64,000 bases of DNA, from assembly GCA_951406725.2 (NCBI GenBank), contig OX597822.1:11594001-11658000 (forward strand), given 5' to 3'. A program made the translations under genes and the position numbers. This DNA comes from Octopus vulgaris (lineage: Eukaryota). Below are positions 11,980 to 57,800 of this stretch, one piece after another. Numbering within the stretch: the stretch's first letter is position 1; the number at the start of each line of letters is the position of its first letter. Under the pieces are notes generated by a model, which saw only the letters and a list, made by a program, of their open reading frames with translations, was not told the origin of the DNA and did not search any database.

Positions 11980-12902
11980 GAAGGTGAATCAAAAAGTAAT
12001 GCCATTTTCTTTATTTCATGTGAAGTTTTTGATAAATTTTCTTAGTTTAAAATGATTCTATCATTTACGTTCTGAAATATTTTATTTCTTACTTTTCAGG
12101 TTTTTAGACTGGTAAGGAATATTCAAAGTGGCTGCCCCATCCCCACCCCTTAGAGTTACGCCAAAAACAAAGAGCAGTGACTGAATTTCTTGTTGCTGAG
12201 GGGGAAACCCCTGTGAACATTCACCAACGATTACAAAATGTCTTTGAGGACAATAAGTTAGATTATAGCAATGTATGTAGGTGGTTCTGTGCAGGTGGGT
12301 CCATCACCTGAAAGATGAAAAGGTGGAAACTGTCAGTGTAGGCGATAAACCCCGTTCCTGCCGTCCATCCGCTTCTGTGAATCCTGCCAATAAAGCCAAA
12401 GCAAATGCTCTGATCAGAGAAGACAGGTGCATAGCTCTTGATGAGTTGGCAGAAATCCTTGAAATGAACCATGGAAGTGCTTACAACATTGTCGAATCAC
12501 TTGGATTTTCAAAAATGTGTGCCCGTTGGGTACCGAGAGAGCTGACTACCGAACGCAAATCTGACAGGGTCAATGTCTGCACTCGAGATTTAGCGCCTTC
12601 AGACTATCATCTCTTCGGCCCCACAAAAGAGGGTTTGAGAGGCAAACATTATTCTAGCGACGAGGAAGAGAAAACTGTAATGAAGAAGTGGCTCAAAGAA
12701 CAGTCAACAGAATTTTAGAGAGCAGGGATACATGCTCTCATTCGAAAGTGGAACATTGATATTGAGAGAAACAGTGACTATGTTGAGAAGTAGGGACGGG
12801 ATGCACAGAGGACCAGCTTCATTTTGATGTATGATACATGTTCCTGTACAGGTAATTATACCCGTCCTAAACAAAATGGCATTACTTTTTGACTCACCCT
12901 CG
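11979..12902 (+). mobile_element. mariner element with both TIRs and an internally deleted transposase
   Basis: TIRs are cgaaggtgaatcaaaaagtaatgccatttt and aaaatggcattactttttgactcaccctcg followed by TA. ORF 12281..12718 has KMCARWVPRELT joined directly to DLAPSDYHLF, so the segment with the first two catalytic D residues is deleted. Confidence 0.9.
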
Positions 12903-37120: not shown

Positions 37121-37165
<45 letters not shown>

Positions 37166-37283
37166 AATCAAGGAACGGCCATAATAGGCCATTCACCCAC
37201 TAGAAATAACAGCCAAAAGCTTCAACCGCAAAATAACATCAATTCCGTAAACCAGGAGAAAATTAAAAAACATTTACCCTGTA

Positions 37284-37390
37284 ATTTCTTAGACGATGCA
37301 CCGTTTCGTCTACTGTTTAATGGTAAACTAACCTGATTAAATTAAATCAAGCCAATCTACCATAGGCCCTTAGATTCATCAGTAAGAAAT
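37284..37390 (-). ncRNA. Type I hammerhead ribozyme, unit 1 (repeated at 37775, 38267, 38761, 39253, 39746)
   Basis: atttctta-CTGATGA-atcta[long hairpin]tagac-GAAA-cggtgcatcg-TC-taagaaat: 8-bp stem I, intact core, GUC cleavage triplet. Confidence 0.85.
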
Positions 37391-40027
37391 AGCCAAGTCG
37401 GAACAGATATTTTTCACGAGGCATTCCCGTTGCTGCCTCGGCAATATCTGACCTAAAATTTTCAAATCGTCGCACTCGCGCCAAATTTATCGGCAGCAAA
37501 TAAATATAAGCCGCCGATTCCATTACGGAATTAACCAGAAAATTCATAATTAATCAATATAGGGTGGCAAAAAAAATTTTGTAGAATTCTTTTGCCACCA
37601 GCGGCCTAGTGGGAAAAAATTAAATAGTCATAAACCATTTTTAAGTTCAACATCACAATCAAGGAACGGCCATAATAGGCCATTCACCCACTAGAAATAA
37701 CAGCCAAAAGCTTCAACCGCAAAATAACATCAATTCCGTAAACCAGGAGAAAATTAAAAAACATTTACCCTGTAATTTCTTAGACGATGCACCGTTTCGT
37801 CTACTGTTTAATGGTAAACTAACCTGATTAAATTAAATCAAGCCAATCTACCATAGGCCCTTAGATTCATCAGTAAGAAATAGCCAAGTCGGAACAGATA
37901 TTTTTCACGAGGCATTCCCGTTGCTGCCTCGGCAATATCTGACCTAAAATTTTCAAATCGTCGCACTCGCGCCAAATTTATCGGCAGCAAATAAATATAA
38001 GCCGCCGATTCCATTACGGAATTAACCAGAAAATTCATAATTAATCAATATAGGGTGGCAAAAAAAAATTTTGTAGAATTCTTTTGCCACCAGCGGCCTA
38101 GTGGGAAAAAATTAAATAGTCATAAACCATTTTTAAGTTCAACATCACAATCAAGGAACGGCCATAATAGGCCATTCACCCACTAGAAATAACAGCCAAA
38201 AGCTTCAACCGCAAAATAACATCAATTCCGTAAACCAGGAGAAAATTAAAAAACATTTACCCTGTAATTTCTTAGACGATGCACCGTTTCGTCTACTGTT
38301 TAATGGTAAACTAACCTGATTAAATTAAATCAAGCCAATCTACCATAGGCCCTTAGATTCATCAGTAAGAAATAGCCAAGTCGGAACAGATATTTTTCAC
38401 GAGGCATTCCCGTTGCTGCCTCGGCAATATCTGACCTAAAATTTTCAAATCGTCGCACTCGCGCCAAATTTATCGGCAGCAAATAAATATAAGCCGCCGA
38501 TTCCATTACGGAATTAACCAGAAAATTCATAATTAATCAATATAGGGTGGCAAAAAAAAAAATTTTGTAGAATTCTTTTGCCACCAGCGGCCTAGTGGGA
38601 AAAAATTAAATAGTCATAAACCATTTTTAAGTTCAACATCACAATCAAGGAACGGCCATAATAGGCCATTCACCCACTAGAAATAACAGCCAAAAGCTTC
38701 AACCGCAAAATAACATCAATTCCGTAAACCAGGAGAAAATTAAAAAACATTTACCCTGTAATTTCTTAGACGATGCACCGTTTCGTCTACTGTTTAATGG
38801 TAAACTAACCTGATTAAATTAAATCAAGCCAATCTACCATAGGCCCTTAGATTCATCAGTAAGAAATAGCCAAGTCGGAACAGATATTTTTCACGAGGCA
38901 TTCCCGTTGCTGCCTCGGCAATATCTGACCTAAAATTTTCAAATCGTCGCACTCGCGCCAAATTTATCGGCAGCAAATAAATATAAGCCGCCGATTCCAT
39001 TACGGAATTAACCAGAAAATTCATAATTAATCAATATAGGGTGGCAAAAAAAAATTTTGTAGAATTCTTTTGCCACCAGCGGCCTAGTGGGAAAAAATTA
39101 AATAGTCATAAACCATTTTTAAGTTCAACATCACAATCAAGGAACGGCCATAATAGGCCATTCACCCACTAGAAATAACAGCCAAAAGCTTCAACCGCAA
39201 AATAACATCAATTCCATAAACCAGGAGAAAATTAAAAAACATTTACCCTGTAATTTCTTAGACGATGCACCGTTTCGTCTACTGTTTAATGGTAAACTAA
39301 CCTGATTAAATTAAATCAAGCCGATCTACCATAGGCCCTTAGATTCATCAGTAAGAAATAGCCAAGTCGGAACAGATATTTTTCACGAGGCATTCCCGTT
39401 GCTGCCTCGGCAATATCTGACCTAAAATTTTCAAATCGTCGCACTCGCGCCAAATTTATCGGCAGCAAATAAATATAAGCCGCCGATTCCATTACGGAAT
39501 TAACCAGAAAATTCATAATTAATCAATATAGGGTGGCAAAAAAAAAATTTTGTAGAATTCTTTTGCCACCAGCGGCCTAGTGGGAAAAAATTAAATAGTC
39601 ATAAACCATTTTTAAGTTCAACATCACAATCAAGGAACGGCCATAATAGGCCATTCACCCACTAGAAATAACAGCCAAAGGCTTCAACCGCAAAATAACA
39701 TCAATTCCGTAAACCAGGAGAAAATTAAAAAACATTTACCCTGTAATTTCTTAGACGATGCACCGTTTCGTCTACTGTTTAATGGTAAACTAACCTGATT
39801 AAATTAAATCAAGCCAATCTACCATAGGCCCTTAGATTCATCAGTAAGAAATAGCCAAGTCGGAACAGATATTTTTCACGAGGCATTCCCGTTGCTGTCT
39901 CGGCAATATCTGACCTAAAATTTTCAAATCGTCGCACTCGCGCCAAATTTATCGGCAGCAAATAAATATAAGCCGCCGATTCCATTACGGAATTAACCAG
40001 AAAATTCATAATTAATCAATATAGGCT

Positions 40028-40134
40028 ATTTCTTACTGATGAATCTAAGGGCCTATGGTAGATTGGCTTGATTTAATTTAATCAGGTTAGTTTACCATTA
40101 AACAGTAGACGAAACGGTGCATCGTCTAAGAAAT
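40028..40134 (+). ncRNA. Type I hammerhead ribozyme, inverted arm copy 1
   Basis: Same motif read directly on the plus strand. Confidence 0.85.
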
Positions 40135-40516
40135 TACAGGGTAAATGTTTTTAATTTTCTCCTGGTTTACGGAATTGATGTTATTTTGCGGTTGAAGCTT
40201 TTGGCTGTTATTTCTAGTGGGTGAATGGCCTATTATGGCCGTTCCTTGATTGTAATGTTGAACTTAAAAATGGTTTATGACTATTTAATTTTTTCCCACT
40301 AGGCCGCTGGTGGCAAAAGAATTCTACAAAATTTTTTTTTGCCACCCTATATTGATTAATTATGAATTTTCTGGTTAATTCCATAATGGAATCGGCGGTT
40401 ATATTTATTTGCTGCCGATAAATTTGGCGCGAGTGCGACGATTTGAAAATTTTAGGTCAGATATTGCCGAGGCAGCAACGGGAATGCCTCGGGAAAATAT
40501 CTGTTCCGACTTGGCT

Positions 40517-40623
40517 ATTTCTTACTGATGAATCTAAGGGCCTATGGTAGATTGGCTTGATTTAATTTAATCAGGTTAGTTTACCATTAAACAGTAGACG
40601 AAACGGTGCATCGTCTAAGAAAT
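40517..40623 (+). ncRNA. Type I hammerhead ribozyme, inverted arm copy 2
   Basis: Same motif read directly on the plus strand. Confidence 0.85.
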
Positions 40624-40852
40624 TACAGGGTAAATGTTTTTTTAATTTTCTCCTGGTTTACGGAATTGATGTTATTTTGCGGTTGAAGCTTTTGGCTGTT
40701 ATTTCTAGTGGGTGAATGGCCTATTATGGCCGTTCCTTGATTGTGATGTTGAACTTAAAAATGGTTTATGACTATTTAATTTTTTCCCACTAGGCCGCTG
40801 GTGGCAAAAGAATTCTACAAATTTATTTTTTTTTTTTGCCACCCTATATTGA

Positions 40853-40902
<50 letters not shown>

Positions 40903-41970
40903 GTGTATATATATACATACATAACAGTAATTGCACTCCAGGTTTTTAAAGTGAGATTACATTTTCCTAGTGAAACGTCTTATCGAGAACAGGAGATCCC
41001 CTACCCCAAGTGGTTCATATGTTAGTTGAACCATACCGGGGCACTAACGGGTGGTACTACTCTGGGTCAGAATTGATCTGGGAACAATAGTGGCTTAAAT
41101 CTGTTTCCACATCCCTGAAAACCTTGTAGCTCGTTTATCAGTGACCCACTTCCTGGTGGAATTTGAGGAAATTCGTTTGGGAGATTCTTCTTCTTGTGTA
41201 TAGTCCTATGGACGAAAGCGGTTTGATGTGGTTCCTTCTTTAACTAGAAAATTTAAAGTGGCGTCCGCGCAACGAAAGAAGCTTACAAACAAATCACCCG
41301 TTTTGCGCATGCTGTACACTGAGGCGTGAAAGTTGCAACAGAGGTAGTAAAACTGTCAAAGGGAGGAGTTTGGTGTTGATTTAGAGTTTTGATCGGCCAA
41401 AGAGATATTATCTTCATGAAATAATTATCGGACATAGAGTGAAATACGAATTACCAAACACATTTGAAACAGTTGATCCTATTGTAATACGAACCAGTTA
41501 GACTTAAGTCTTCGGTGATGAAGTATTAAGATTAAACAATTAAATTATTGATTTAATTATTTCGGCAAGTTTTAAGTATGTTTCTGTCTAATTCTGTTCT
41601 TTTCAGCGGAAAAAGATATCACTGAACTTGCCAAAGCTTATGACGTGGGAAGGACATTTTAATGCGAGAAATTACACAATGGCTTACGTAGAAAAATAAA
41701 TTTATTTATAGAATGGATATAACTAAAATGTCATCTGCACGAAAAATAACATTTAAATTGATGTTAACACATAAAATGCAACGATAATTTAGAAAGCTAA
41801 GTAGAAATGATTATGAATCGACGAAAAACAATTTTACTTAATGGCCAATCGTTTTAATTACTCCTATTTTGCTTTTTGATGCTTCCTGCATTAAATATAT
41901 TAGCATTAACTTTTTTTTTCACACGAATGACATTAGATTTATTTAATAATGATAATCATGATGATGGTGA

Positions 41971-43616: not shown

Positions 43617-43733
43617 GTGGAGGTAAAGAATACGCACACCACCAGTTTTCGCCATAAACCTAAACCTAAACGTAACCCTAACCCTAACCCTAAATACCAA
43701 AATCTGGTGGTGTGCGTATTCTTTACCTTCAAC
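43617..43733. mobile_element. Small fold-back MITE with a telomere-like core, inserted in a family A SINE (43452-43840)
   Basis: Perfect 25-bp inverted repeat aggtaaagaatacgcacaccaccag (43621-43645 and 43704-43728) around taaacc/taaccc hexamers. Confidence 0.75.
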
Positions 43734-45531: not shown

Positions 45532-46345
45532 AGGATCTTTTCGCTTTGACCGGCAGATTTTCAAAAAAATTTCTTTGTAACTAAACACTTTTAAACTTCG
45601 TATATTGGTAGCATCTGTTTATAAAACATCCTTTTCTCTTGGCTTTCTTGAGAAAATTCTGTAGTTTTTAAGCTATTTTTTCTATAATTTCTTGCATTTC
45701 GGCAATTTCAACCAATCAATGATGTCTATTAAGGGGAATTCAATTTCTGCCGTAAACATTTCCTGGCGGTGTCATATGAAAATGTCCCTGTTATTTATGA
45801 GAAAAAAGATACCCTGTGGCCATAAAATGAGAGGTCACTCGTAAACAGAGCTGGATAACAAAACCGTTCCCTCTTTAGTGTGCACCCATAATTATGACCC
45901 TACTATCGATCTATTGCATTTCAATCTGTTTTACGGTTAGGGTTAGTGTAGGGTTAGGGTTAAGGTTAGGGTTAGATGTGGAGGAAAGGTATCTTTTTTT
46001 CTTCAGAAATGTAAATAAACCCAATCTGTTTCTTAACCGAATATGTAATGTGTGTATCTGTGCAACAGAGAGGAAACTTAAAACTGGAAATGCTGTGAAG
46101 TTAGAATATGTGTTTATTAATAAAAGTTTAATAACGATAATATTTTATTCATACGAACGTAACTGATATAAAGCATGCCATAAATAACAGGGGCATGTTC
46201 ATATGACTACGCCAGAAAATGTTCTTGACACACTACGGCAGAAATTGCTTTCACCTCAATACACATCATTGATTGGTTTAAATTGCCGAAATGCAAGGAA
46301 GTAAACAACAAATATCTTACAAACTACAGAATTTTCTCAAGAAAA
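45532..46345. mobile_element. Long-TIR fold-back element with a (TTAGGG)-like centre, right end truncated
   Basis: About 45643-45800 is the imperfect reverse complement of about 46178-46345. ggttagggttagtgtagggttagggttaaggttaggg lies at 45935-45975. Confidence 0.7.
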
Positions 46346-49887: not shown

Positions 49888-50890
49888 TTAGGTCATCCCA
49901 TAAGTTCTGTCCGATTTTACCATTTTTAAAATTGAATGAAATTTAATAGTATTTTAGAATGTCTAATGGAATTTAAAATTATTTTTATGCATTTATGTAC
50001 ATTTAAAGTAAGTAGCTATTACTTTACAGAATAATAGAATTAAAATTTCTTTGATTAAAACCCTTTCTAACATGGAAGTATCCAAAGAGCATTTAAGGCA
50101 CATAATGCTTTATGAGTACAAAAAAGGAGACACTGCAGCCGAGGGGACTCGAAACATATACTCAGTTTATGGGGAAGAATGCTTGAATGAAAGAACTTGC
50201 AGAAGATGGTTTGCAAAATTCAGAAGTGGAGATTTCAGCCTTGAAGATGAAAATCGAACAGGACGTCCAGTTGAATTTGATGATAAGCTCCTTGAGGCAT
50301 TACTTGAAGAAAATCCTGCATTATCAGTTGAAAAATTGGCAACAAAGCTTAATTCAAACCATACAACTGTTCATCGTCATCTTCAACAACTTGGAAAGTC
50401 TCATACACTTGGAAAATTGGTGTCTCATGAATTGTCCGAAAGTAACCGCAATTCCCAAGTTGACATTCTACTCTTCTCTCCATTCTCGCGAACTCATTTC
50501 ACCCTTTTTGGAGAGACTTGTGACTGGGGACGAAAAATGGATCGTCTATCAAAATATTAAACGTCGTAAGCAGTGGTAAAAGGGAAAAAGCTCAACTACA
50601 ATCGAGAAGGGAACTACATGGGGGAAAATGTTCTCTCTATTTTGTCGAATTGCAAAGTAATTCACTTTGAATTGTTAACACCTAATGCAACAATCAATGC
50701 TCAAGTCTACTGTCAGCAATTAGAACGTTTGAACCAAGGTTCGAAGAAAATAAGACACGCTTTAATGAATATAAAAGGTACGATGTTTCATCAGGACAAT
50801 GCGCGACCCCGCACTGCAAAGATCACATCACAGAAGATCGAAGAGCTTGGTTGGGAAGAAATTCCTTATCCACCTTATTCTCCCGAAGAC
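49888..50890 (+). mobile_element. mariner element (Hsmar/SETMAR-like transposase), 3'-truncated pseudogene
   Basis: TA plus the ttaggtcatcccataagttctgtccg terminus. Motifs HLRHIMLYEYKKG, RRWFAKFRSGDFSLEDENRTGRP, LVTGDEKWI, FHQDNARP and YPPYSPED lie across three frames. Confidence 0.88.
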
Positions 50891-55435: not shown

Positions 55436-56056
55436 ATTAATTAAATTTAGCTGAATGGGAAGAGACAGTTATCTCATCTACAACGGTTTCGAAATATGAA
55501 GACCAAATCATTGTCTTCAAATAGGACGTAGAAGGAAAAGACATACACAAGTAGAGTACAGGTTTAAACACACACACACAATACATACATACATACATAC
55601 ATACATACATGCATACATACATACATACATACATACATACAATACATACATACATACATACATACATACATACATACATACATACATACATACATACATA
55701 CATACTGCGTGCTTACACACGTACGCAGAGAAACACACACACAGACATGCAGCTGAATATTTCTATAAGAAAATATAGATAGAAATGTTACTGTGAAAAG
55801 AAAGATGAGACAACAACGGTATGAAGGTAAATTTAGTCTGATGATTAAACAAATGACATTTTGATTTGTGCCTTACAGGTGAAAATATTTAGCAGGAGAG
55901 TAATTAAATTGATAGAGTGACAGGAGTTAAAGAGACAGTTGTCATTCAATTAAGAGAAATATAAAATGGAGAGATAAGATTCATAAAACATATATATGCT
56001 TAAATGGAAAGTAGCTTGGAGGGTGTCAAGCTACACGTCGTTTGTTCAGAAAGTTC

Positions 56057-56130
<74 letters not shown>

Positions 56131-56256
56131 CACACGCATATGTAGACACACGCATGCCAATGTGTGGCACCTTTGGCAAGTGTCTTCTTGTATAGCCTCG
56201 GACCGACCAAAGCCTTGTGAGTGGATTTGGTAGATGGAAACTGAAAGAAGCCCGTC

Positions 56257-56296
<40 letters not shown>

Positions 56297-56298
<2 letters not shown>

Positions 56299-56914
56299 TC
56301 ACAATCAAGGAACGGCCATAATAGGCCATTCACCCACTAGAAATAACAGCCAAAAGCTTTAACCGCAAAATAACATTAATACCGTAAACCAGGAGAAAAT
56401 TGAAAAACTTTTACCCTGTAATTTCTTAGACGATGCACCGTTTCATCTACCGTTTGATGGTAAACTAACCTGATTAAATTAAATCAAGCCAATCCACCAT
56501 AGGCCCTTAGACTCATCAGTAAGAAATAGCCAAATCGGAACAGATATTTTTCACGAGGCATTCCTCTTGCTACCTCGGCAATATCTGACCTAAAATTTTC
56601 AAATCGTCGCACTCGCGCCAAATTTATCGGCAGCAAATAAATATAAGCCCCCGATTCCATTACGGAACTAACCAGAAAATTCATAATTAATCAATATAGG
56701 GTGGCAAAAAAATTTTGTAGAATTCTTTTGCCACCAGCGGCCTAGTAGGAAAAAATTAAATAGTCATAAACCATTTTTACGTTCAACATCACAATCAAGG
56801 AACGGCCATAATAGGCCATTCACCCACTAGAAATAACAGCCAAAAGCTTTAACCGCAAAATAACATTAATACCGTAAACCAGGAGAAAATTGAAAAACTT
56901 TTACCCTATATTGA

Positions 56915-56919
<5 letters not shown>
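56297..56919 (-). mobile_element. Dispersed ~1.25-unit copy of the 492-bp retrozyme-like repeat, inside the (TA)n of a family A SINE (56160-57207)
   Basis: Slightly diverged from the array. It has the same start (atcacaatcaagg) and the same inverted terminus (ccctatattgattaat). Confidence 0.9.
56421..56527 (-). ncRNA. Type I hammerhead ribozyme
   Basis: atttctta-CTGATGA-gtcta...tagat-GAAA-cggtgcatcg-TC-taagaaat. Confidence 0.85.
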
Positions 56920-56987
<68 letters not shown>

Positions 56988-57800
56988 GTGTATTTGTTAT
57001 TTGTGTCTGTTTGCCCTCTTCACCATCGCTTGACAACCGATGTTGGTGCGATTACATCCCGTCAACTAGCGGTTCGGCAAAAAGAGTCCGATAGAATAAG
57101 TACTAGGTTTACAAAGAATACGTCCTGGGGTCGATTTGTTCGACTAAAGGCGGTGCTCCAACATGGCCGCAGTCAAATGACTGAAACAACTAAAAGAATA
57201 AAAGAATAATCGAATATAGAAAATAGATTTCAAATATATTAATTTAATAACTACAATTAATAAATATGTGATCATTGTGTATTTTCGAGTGAGTCCTAGA
57301 AATAGTTGTGGGAGAAATGAAATATTTGAAATAGCAAGATGAACGATGGGTTCCCTATTCTTCTATTCCTATTCTTTCTATACTAGACCCCTATCCACTA
57401 GCTGGAGAAGCGGTGCTCTCAGACACGAAGCCTCCATTGATGATGTGGTGTTGAGTTATCTCCTATTTTCTCCATGTCTCTTTCGAAATACTTTTCGTTC
57501 AAGATTGATGAAATAACTAGCAGACAAAAGTAATGTTGTTATCGTAAGCGAATAGGAAGCTTGAAATCTTTGCCCCAGTATGGCCACAGAGAAACGATTG
57601 AAATCGGTAGAAGAAGAATGAAAGATGGCATCGCTTTGTTCTTCAAACAAAAGGTTAACTTTGATGTGAGGTAAAGATTCTGCAAGATATATTATGATTC
57701 GCGTTCACACGTAACAGTGCTCTGTCAATTCTCGTGTCCGGTTTCATATGGTTTGATGTGTGTGTGTATTTCTGTATGTATATATATGTATATATATGCA

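Follow-up and report, generated by a model that had tools for sequence, protein, structure and literature searches.

The 56.3 kb locus of the window (the whole stretch of Octopus vulgaris DNA that was analysed, 64,000 nucleotides long) raises the question of how an insertion made of a long forward arm and a very short inverted tail is produced, and why a much longer array at 37-41 kb begins and ends in the same way. The locus is formed, in this order, by a (TA)n tract, a forward arm, a 17-nt inverted arm and a second (TA)n tract; the features of both loci are listed in Table 1. Monomer positions are numbered from window position 37161 as position 1, in a unit of 491 bp. The forward arm runs from monomer 491 through one full unit and on to 120 (i.e., a unit plus 120 nt), and it ends 11 nt before the predicted ribozyme cut site. 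The inverted arm is the exact reverse complement of monomer 405 to 389, and the description in the earlier note of a short inverted piece joined through ACCCT was correct, as was that of an inversion of about 840 nt joined through GG at 40 kb. In the array, the units of the site-A arm are ~99% identical and this arm ends at the foot of a hairpin (monomer 403); the two arms share the GG at their joint. The array copy and the 56.3 kb copy are 96% identical. It had also been claimed that the boundaries at both loci are the same; the shared (TA)n edges and the inverted tail stand, but the match is only within 1-3 nt, given that the 56.3 kb copy begins one base earlier (C at 56297, ATCAC at 56298) and that the right ends lie at monomer 389 versus 386-387 in the array, blurred by TA. 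The paired-boundary feature is real at both loci and, as described below, it holds genome-wide.

Table 1. Features of the two retrozyme loci and of the repeat that hosts one of them, in window coordinates.
Feature	Position	Strand	Remarks
(TA)n target, left of the 37-41 kb array	37121..37160
Site-A arm of the array, 2865 nt	37161..40025	+	monomer 1 to 403, 5.8 units
Site-B arm of the array, 837 nt	40024..40860	-	monomer 234 to 386, inverted
(TA)n target, right of the 37-41 kb array	40861..40923
Older abundant repeat, left half (host of the 56.3 kb locus)	56128..56257		7 paralogues inspected
(TA)n target, left portion, 56.3 kb locus	56258..56296		sequence
Site-A arm, 56.3 kb locus, 611 nt	56297..56907	+	putative cDNA
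Predicted type I hammerhead ribozyme, 56.3 kb copy	56421..56527	-	motif; below Rfam gathering scores
Internal copy of site B	56686..56701	+	source of the inverted tail
Strong hairpin adjoining site B	56699..56735		its foot is a stop for short tails and for many long arms
17-nt inverted arm from site B	56903..56919	-	putative second cDNA
ACCCT microhomology	56903..56907		overlap of both arms
(TA)n target, right portion, 56.3 kb locus	56920..56987
Older host repeat, right half	56988..57215

The repeat unit carries on its minus strand a type I hammerhead motif, with an 8-bp stem I, CUGAUGA, a long stem II, GAAA and GUC, and a short stem III with a palindromic loop. It was found by motif, the Rfam scan of the 64-kb window having given no matches at the gathering score; in the 56.3 kb copy the predicted cut lies between 56429 and 56428. 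Hammerheads tolerate variation at the N position of CUGANGA and in GUC versus GUA, and across ~90 loci the core changes almost only there; stem II shows one compensatory change across these loci. The 491-bp unit is tandem and dispersed, has ~37% GC and folds far better than shuffled sequences (z -7.4), and a mid-unit 33-mer has 1659 exact matches in the 2.8-Gb assembly. No ORF of at least 130 aa is present at either window locus. A frame of ~67 codons, noticed by eye, was discarded because the differences between the two window copies alter its amino acids, and the unit was also rejected as an autonomous Penelope-like element (PLE), since the 64-kb window holds no RT plus GIY-YIG ORF. By the definition given in the available part of PMC7229834, the unit, judged by its sequence, is a non-LTR retrozyme with a type I hammerhead on the minus strand. 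The metazoan non-LTR retrozymes presented in the available parts of PMC7229834 and bioRxiv 10.64898/2026.07.22.740005 share with it tandem units that are non-coding, a few hundred bp long and low in GC, each with a type I hammerhead, as well as dispersed copies from monomers to multimers, target duplications of more than 4 bp and a proposed status as non-autonomous PLE derivatives; fixed termini, inverted arms and a priming mechanism are not described in those parts, and the word 'inverted' is absent from PMC7229834. None of the datasets listed as containing the unit is recorded as RNA. Elsewhere in the window, the frames at 12281-12715 and 50012-50576 resemble transposase fragments, with motifs that we take to be of mariner type, and short degenerate TTAGGG-like and TAAACC tracts were seen at 45931-45975 and 43655-43694.

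The termini of genomic copies were mapped in three sets of loci: set U, all 38 loci among the first 100 matches of a mid-unit word; set T, the 34 top-scoring loci; and a third set of 39 loci picked by their B junction. From these, L136 (which overlaps L033; only its right end was used), an 18-nt spurious match in L104 and a divergent neighbour in L071 were dropped, and L051, which has a complex joint, was kept out of the junction counts. Mapping onto the monomer, as the earlier note had proposed, gives two sharp peaks in opposite orientation. The two end windows, A and B, together cover 29 of the 491 nt of the unit and contain 66 of the 68 outer ends in set U, and 118 of 122 in sets U and T combined; the outer ends of L083 and L121 fall at monomer 464, a possible minor start site. 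Loci with one A and one B end, with a single arm and with an irregular structure number 28, 8 and 2 in set U, 18, 14 and 2 in set T, and 26, 9 and 4 in the third set, so that 31 of the 111 loci have only one arm. Neither A+A nor B+B was found among the 111, and no non-convergent arms were flagged. In sets U and T, which were not picked by end, all 46 loci with both ends inside the windows are A+B (p 1.4e-14 versus independent choice). Across the genome there are 957 exact junctions of (TA)n to site B, and 465 and 434 of (TA)n to site A for two subfamilies; reversed-pattern controls gave 0 each time. Together with the mapped ends, these counts uphold the proposal of two fixed priming sites on the RNA. 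At two-armed loci the arms converge and are complementary to the hammerhead strand, read outward-in from the target 3' ends, which is what would be expected of priming on the hammerhead RNA from both target strands; either arm may be the longer one (38 versus 43 of 81).

On the other hand, the suggestion that annealing to (TA)n is what fixes the two sites failed. The homology available to the primer is ~2-3 nt, and a control position elsewhere in the unit that offers better TA homology (ATAT) has 2 junctions in the genome. Since annealing cannot fix the sites, protein or RNA structure must select them. In the predicted fold, sites A and B fall in linkers with little pairing, each directly 3' of a strong hairpin; they lie 103 nt apart and sit within one multibranch domain. 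UUGAUU precedes both sites in the subfamily of the window, and site A varies in other subfamilies; as a clue to recognition this motif may be taken as a weak lead. In the twin priming of L1, both target strands prime one RNA, giving an inversion, a microhomology join and target duplications; L1 primes at the poly(A) end and at a variable internal site chosen by annealing, and its two cDNAs copy adjacent stretches. In contrast, the retrozyme uses two fixed internal sites, and the stretches copied by its two arms overlap by several units. L1-type twin priming was rejected, given that there is no poly(A) end, that both sites are fixed and that the ATAT position is almost never used.

The 56.3 kb insertion has landed in an older, abundant repeat, inside its internal (TA)n; in the 7 paralogues inspected in the window, a plain (TA)n/(TG)n tract links the two halves of this repeat. 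This landing site belongs to an extremely abundant repeat with more than 10 paralogues in the window, which is presumably SINE-like. The 2-kb flanks of the two window loci have in common only weak matches of 35-64 nt; segmental duplication is excluded for these loci on this basis, and they are independent insertions, as the earlier note had argued. Where the target is not pure TA, target duplications of 14-15 nt are found (L032, L039, L048, L062 and L095, among others), with 1-3 nt of ambiguity in their length, and at the window loci the duplication is not resolvable within pure (TA)n. An AT-rich or microsatellite target together with a target duplication, as expected of an element mobilised by PLEs, is found among the genomic copies. 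It is true that inverted repeats beside (TA)n are hard to assemble, and that the public contigs from 4 runs over 55750-57750 are swamped by repeats and none of them spans the 56.3 kb locus. An assembly fold-back, a segmental duplication or a rearrangement of satellite DNA as the maker of the inverted structure would nevertheless have to account for some 900-950 junctions of each fixed type across the genome, for target duplications, for unrelated flanks and for three other families that obey the same end rule, and we regard it as very improbable. An assembly fold-back origin of the inverted arms, in particular, is unlikely: besides the target duplications, there are 23 loci out of 77 in which each arm includes some sequence outside the other, by more than 10 nt in 17 of them. 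This agrees with the argument already made that the 40-kb inversion is no such artefact.

The joints between arms and the positions at which the arms stop give information about the template. Fillers of 1-36 nt are present in 29 of the 81 joints and missing from the other 52; microhomology of at least 2 nt occurs in 35 of the 52 filler-free joints (17% expected), as predicted if two cDNAs are joined by microhomology. The fillers of L046, L052, L063, L124 and L139 consist of short retrozyme copies that include site A or site B motifs, and retrozyme-derived fillers of this kind suggest abortive priming or slippage at the joint. Stop sites were counted omitting L054, L070, L083 and L121, whose ends are irregular, and five loci that have one arm and a far end that is not TA. 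Monomer 100-132 contains 39 of 179 arm ends versus 13.2 expected; the stop windows were picked after inspection of the data, and in a scan control the maximum of 5000 null runs was 34. Inner arm ends cluster up to the predicted cut site and fall after it: the 11 nt leading up to it contain 15 of them and the following 11 nt contain 2; at L085 both arms end at 131, exactly the cut end. Among arms longer than one unit, 16 of 97 end at monomer 100-132 (7.0 expected). This distribution may be taken as indirect evidence of in vivo cleavage of the transposition template by the ribozyme. A second excess of stops (23 versus 9.5 expected) occurs at the foot of the hairpin beside site B, and it accounts for the tails of 15-18 nt, such as that at 56.9 kb, as well as for the end of the forward arm of the array. 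Both arms stop together at the cut site in 12 of 77 loci (odds ratio 21.6), and in 0 of 28 loci of the mid-word set, the design of which excludes short double run-offs. A/T-rich self-complementarity at monomer 100-132 could add to this joint stop. In four of the joint-stop loci the two arms have made unequal numbers of laps, so that the circle would have been opened midway or the two arms would have been primed on separate units of a multimer. Scar-leaving template jumps at the cut site were rejected, since monomer 126-137 shows no excess of changes across 222 passes; given these clean passes, the long arms would derive from a circle or an uncut multimer.

Whether both arms were copied from one RNA can be approached through their variants. 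The arms of a locus diverge by 0.5%, versus 4.9% between loci (n=63), an identity within loci that could come in part from later conversion or assembly polishing. In 30 loci with at least 4 units there are 98 singleton variants, 12 that recur inside one arm and 2 that both arms have in common, and 12 of the 30 show fixed differences from their nearest neighbour. The pattern fits passage through a single monomer, i.e., a circular template, and could be mimicked by very young homogeneous source arrays or by later conversion. That both strands are primed on two separate RNAs, held by an asymmetric pair of enzymes, would be in keeping with arm lengths that are uncorrelated (rho 0.11, p 0.45, in the two sets not picked by end) and with the four run-off loci of unequal lap number; however, the arms of one locus are of the same variant despite several coexisting subfamilies, and the joint run-off of both arms is far above independence. 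We give this explanation a slim chance. A somewhat better one, still small, is given to a single TPRT event in which the cDNA or an antisense RNA folds back and self-primes, the second end being set by endonuclease resolution. Head-to-head PLE repeats have been attributed to self-priming (available part of PMC3846280), EN-mediated resolution has been proposed for the tail (available part of PMC8557442), identical arms and microhomology would both follow, and the joints of L042, L067, L085, L111 and L135 are near-symmetric. Nevertheless, a simple fold-back of cDNA needs one arm to lie within the other, so the 23 loci mentioned above fail unless a later central deletion is added; furthermore, either arm may be the longer one, and both arms pile up independently at the cut 5' end of the RNA. 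Priming of both target strands on one RNA with fixed ends, as first proposed from the window alone, is supported by the strict A+B pairing, the fixed outer ends and the microhomology at the joints.

A partner PLE was looked for in this genome. Next to L139 lies a fragment that codes for a thumb region of PLE type and weakly matches GIY-YIG (E 0.002, under the Pfam cut-off); it led to two young autonomous PLE families, whose motifs we take as those of the Neptune clade. These elements insert head-to-head in (TA)n, with one short end and one tail of ~58 nt, in 17 of 18 two-armed loci, the exception being the long/long locus L190. Family 1 (L183:4442-8380, G000:C15:42.99 Mb) is very young; many of its copies have frames of 1310-1312 aa that are open, and the RT is preceded by a long insert rich in Asn, similar to the N-rich inserts known from rotifer Penelopes. 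In family 2 (L172, L174-L182) the 3' region holds (CATA)n/(TA)n tracts, and L179 shows a clean target duplication of 12 nt at a site that is not a microsatellite. Neither family shows a canonical hammerhead under a relaxed pattern, and neither shares sequence or terminal similarity with the retrozyme unit. Among the 150 of 4276 and 150 of 2311 candidates that were scored, no partner PLE with matching ends was found. L163 was rejected as a retrozyme-PLE chimera, since its retrozyme part is a separate short insertion into the same (TA)n, made of a 65-nt B arm and a short tail of A type. A second retrozyme family (L071:2042-2692; L192-L221) has a unit of ~486 bp, is 71-73% identical to the first and gave 2352 candidates at first look; its hammerhead core appears by eye to be CCGAUGA, and at L071 the two families share one (TA)n, placed back to back. 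Among 30 of its loci, fetched with a B-start query, 11 of 13 two-strand loci use the homologous sites and none is B+B; no PLE was found around these 30 loci.

From these results, we consider it likely that this type I hammerhead retrozyme is non-autonomous, that a PLE RT/GIY-YIG enzyme mobilises it in trans and that it is double-primed on one RNA. The enzyme would nick each strand of a target that is AT-rich or (TA)n, with ~12-15 nt between the nicks and 3' overhangs as the result. Each 3' end would then prime reverse transcription on RNA of the hammerhead strand, one at site A and the other at site B, which lies ~103 nt to the 3' side in that one RNA molecule; the complex would be asymmetric and probably dimeric. 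Each cDNA would run for 15 nt to more than 4.5 kb, reading across the joints between units of a circular or uncut multimeric template, and would stop at random, at the hairpin foot or by run-off at the ribozyme-cut 5' end; the two cDNA 3' ends would finally be joined by microhomology or a short filler. The sequence itself displays the ribozyme motif, the fixed ends and their complementarity, the converging arms of one variant, the target duplications, the microhomology and the pile-up of stops, whereas the identity of the enzyme, the geometry of the nicks, the single template, the dimer and the circle are deduced from it. Against this reading count the failure to find a PLE with matching ends, the results obtained in vitro with a PLE protein (see below) and the 31 one-armed loci.

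In its sequence layout, this architecture is the 'inverted copy plus tail' known from PLEs and not a new class. An inverted 5'-truncated copy and a 30-40-bp tail at one end are PLE hallmarks, and the tail is called optional or often one-ended, in the available parts of PMC8557442 and PMC3846280; according to that of PMC8557442, how the tandem and inverted structures and the tails of PLEs form is undefined. EN+ PLEs resemble the retrozyme in their head-to-head arms, one-end tail, microsatellite bias, target duplications and microhomology joins. They differ in that the retrozyme has no ORF, a tail of ~103 nt versus 30-40, arms that are multi-unit concatemers, and a near-obligate A/B pairing where those parts of PMC8557442 and PMC3846280 present the tail as optional. 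In vitro TPRT by Poseidon PAc (available part of PMC11167929) cuts and extends both target strands, and two internal RNA starts bound the tail; a dimer is predicted, the target is AT-rich and primer homology is small. In that part of the work there is no difference in start site between strands and there are no reads ending at the ribozyme site, whereas the genomic retrozyme copies show both strand-specific starts and putative ribozyme-cut ends. Circles have been proposed as templates for PLE copies of more than one unit (PMC4209133, a text from which the word 'inverted' is absent), and the words ribozyme, satellite and circular are absent from PMC13282606. Fixed paired ends in a retrozyme, obligate A/B pairing and run-off at the ribozyme site were not found in searches of the open-access main texts of PMC and bioRxiv. 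What is added to the known picture is the strict pairing, the evidence for a single template and the ribozyme run-off.

A more general proposal, to which we assign an even chance, is that PLEs at large transpose by a double TPRT that is obligately asymmetric and takes place on a single RNA, often a circle. One protomer would prime at the site of the short end and the other at the tail site, rolling synthesis would yield tandems, and hammerhead cleavage in vivo would terminate synthesis. If this is true, a single mechanism would explain pLTR tandems, inverted copies, the one-sided tail and retrozyme arrays. The hundreds of young insertions in this genome offer sharp predictions, i.e., one A and one B end, arms from the same molecule and run-off at the cut site. 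So far, according to the available part of bioRxiv 10.64898/2026.07.22.740005, the link between retrozymes and PLEs has rested on homology and co-occurrence, with the mechanism of mobilisation left open; here the link is the insertion signature itself, in the absence of detected homology. This signature would be mechanistic rather than homology-based evidence that retrozymes ride on the enzymes of PLEs.
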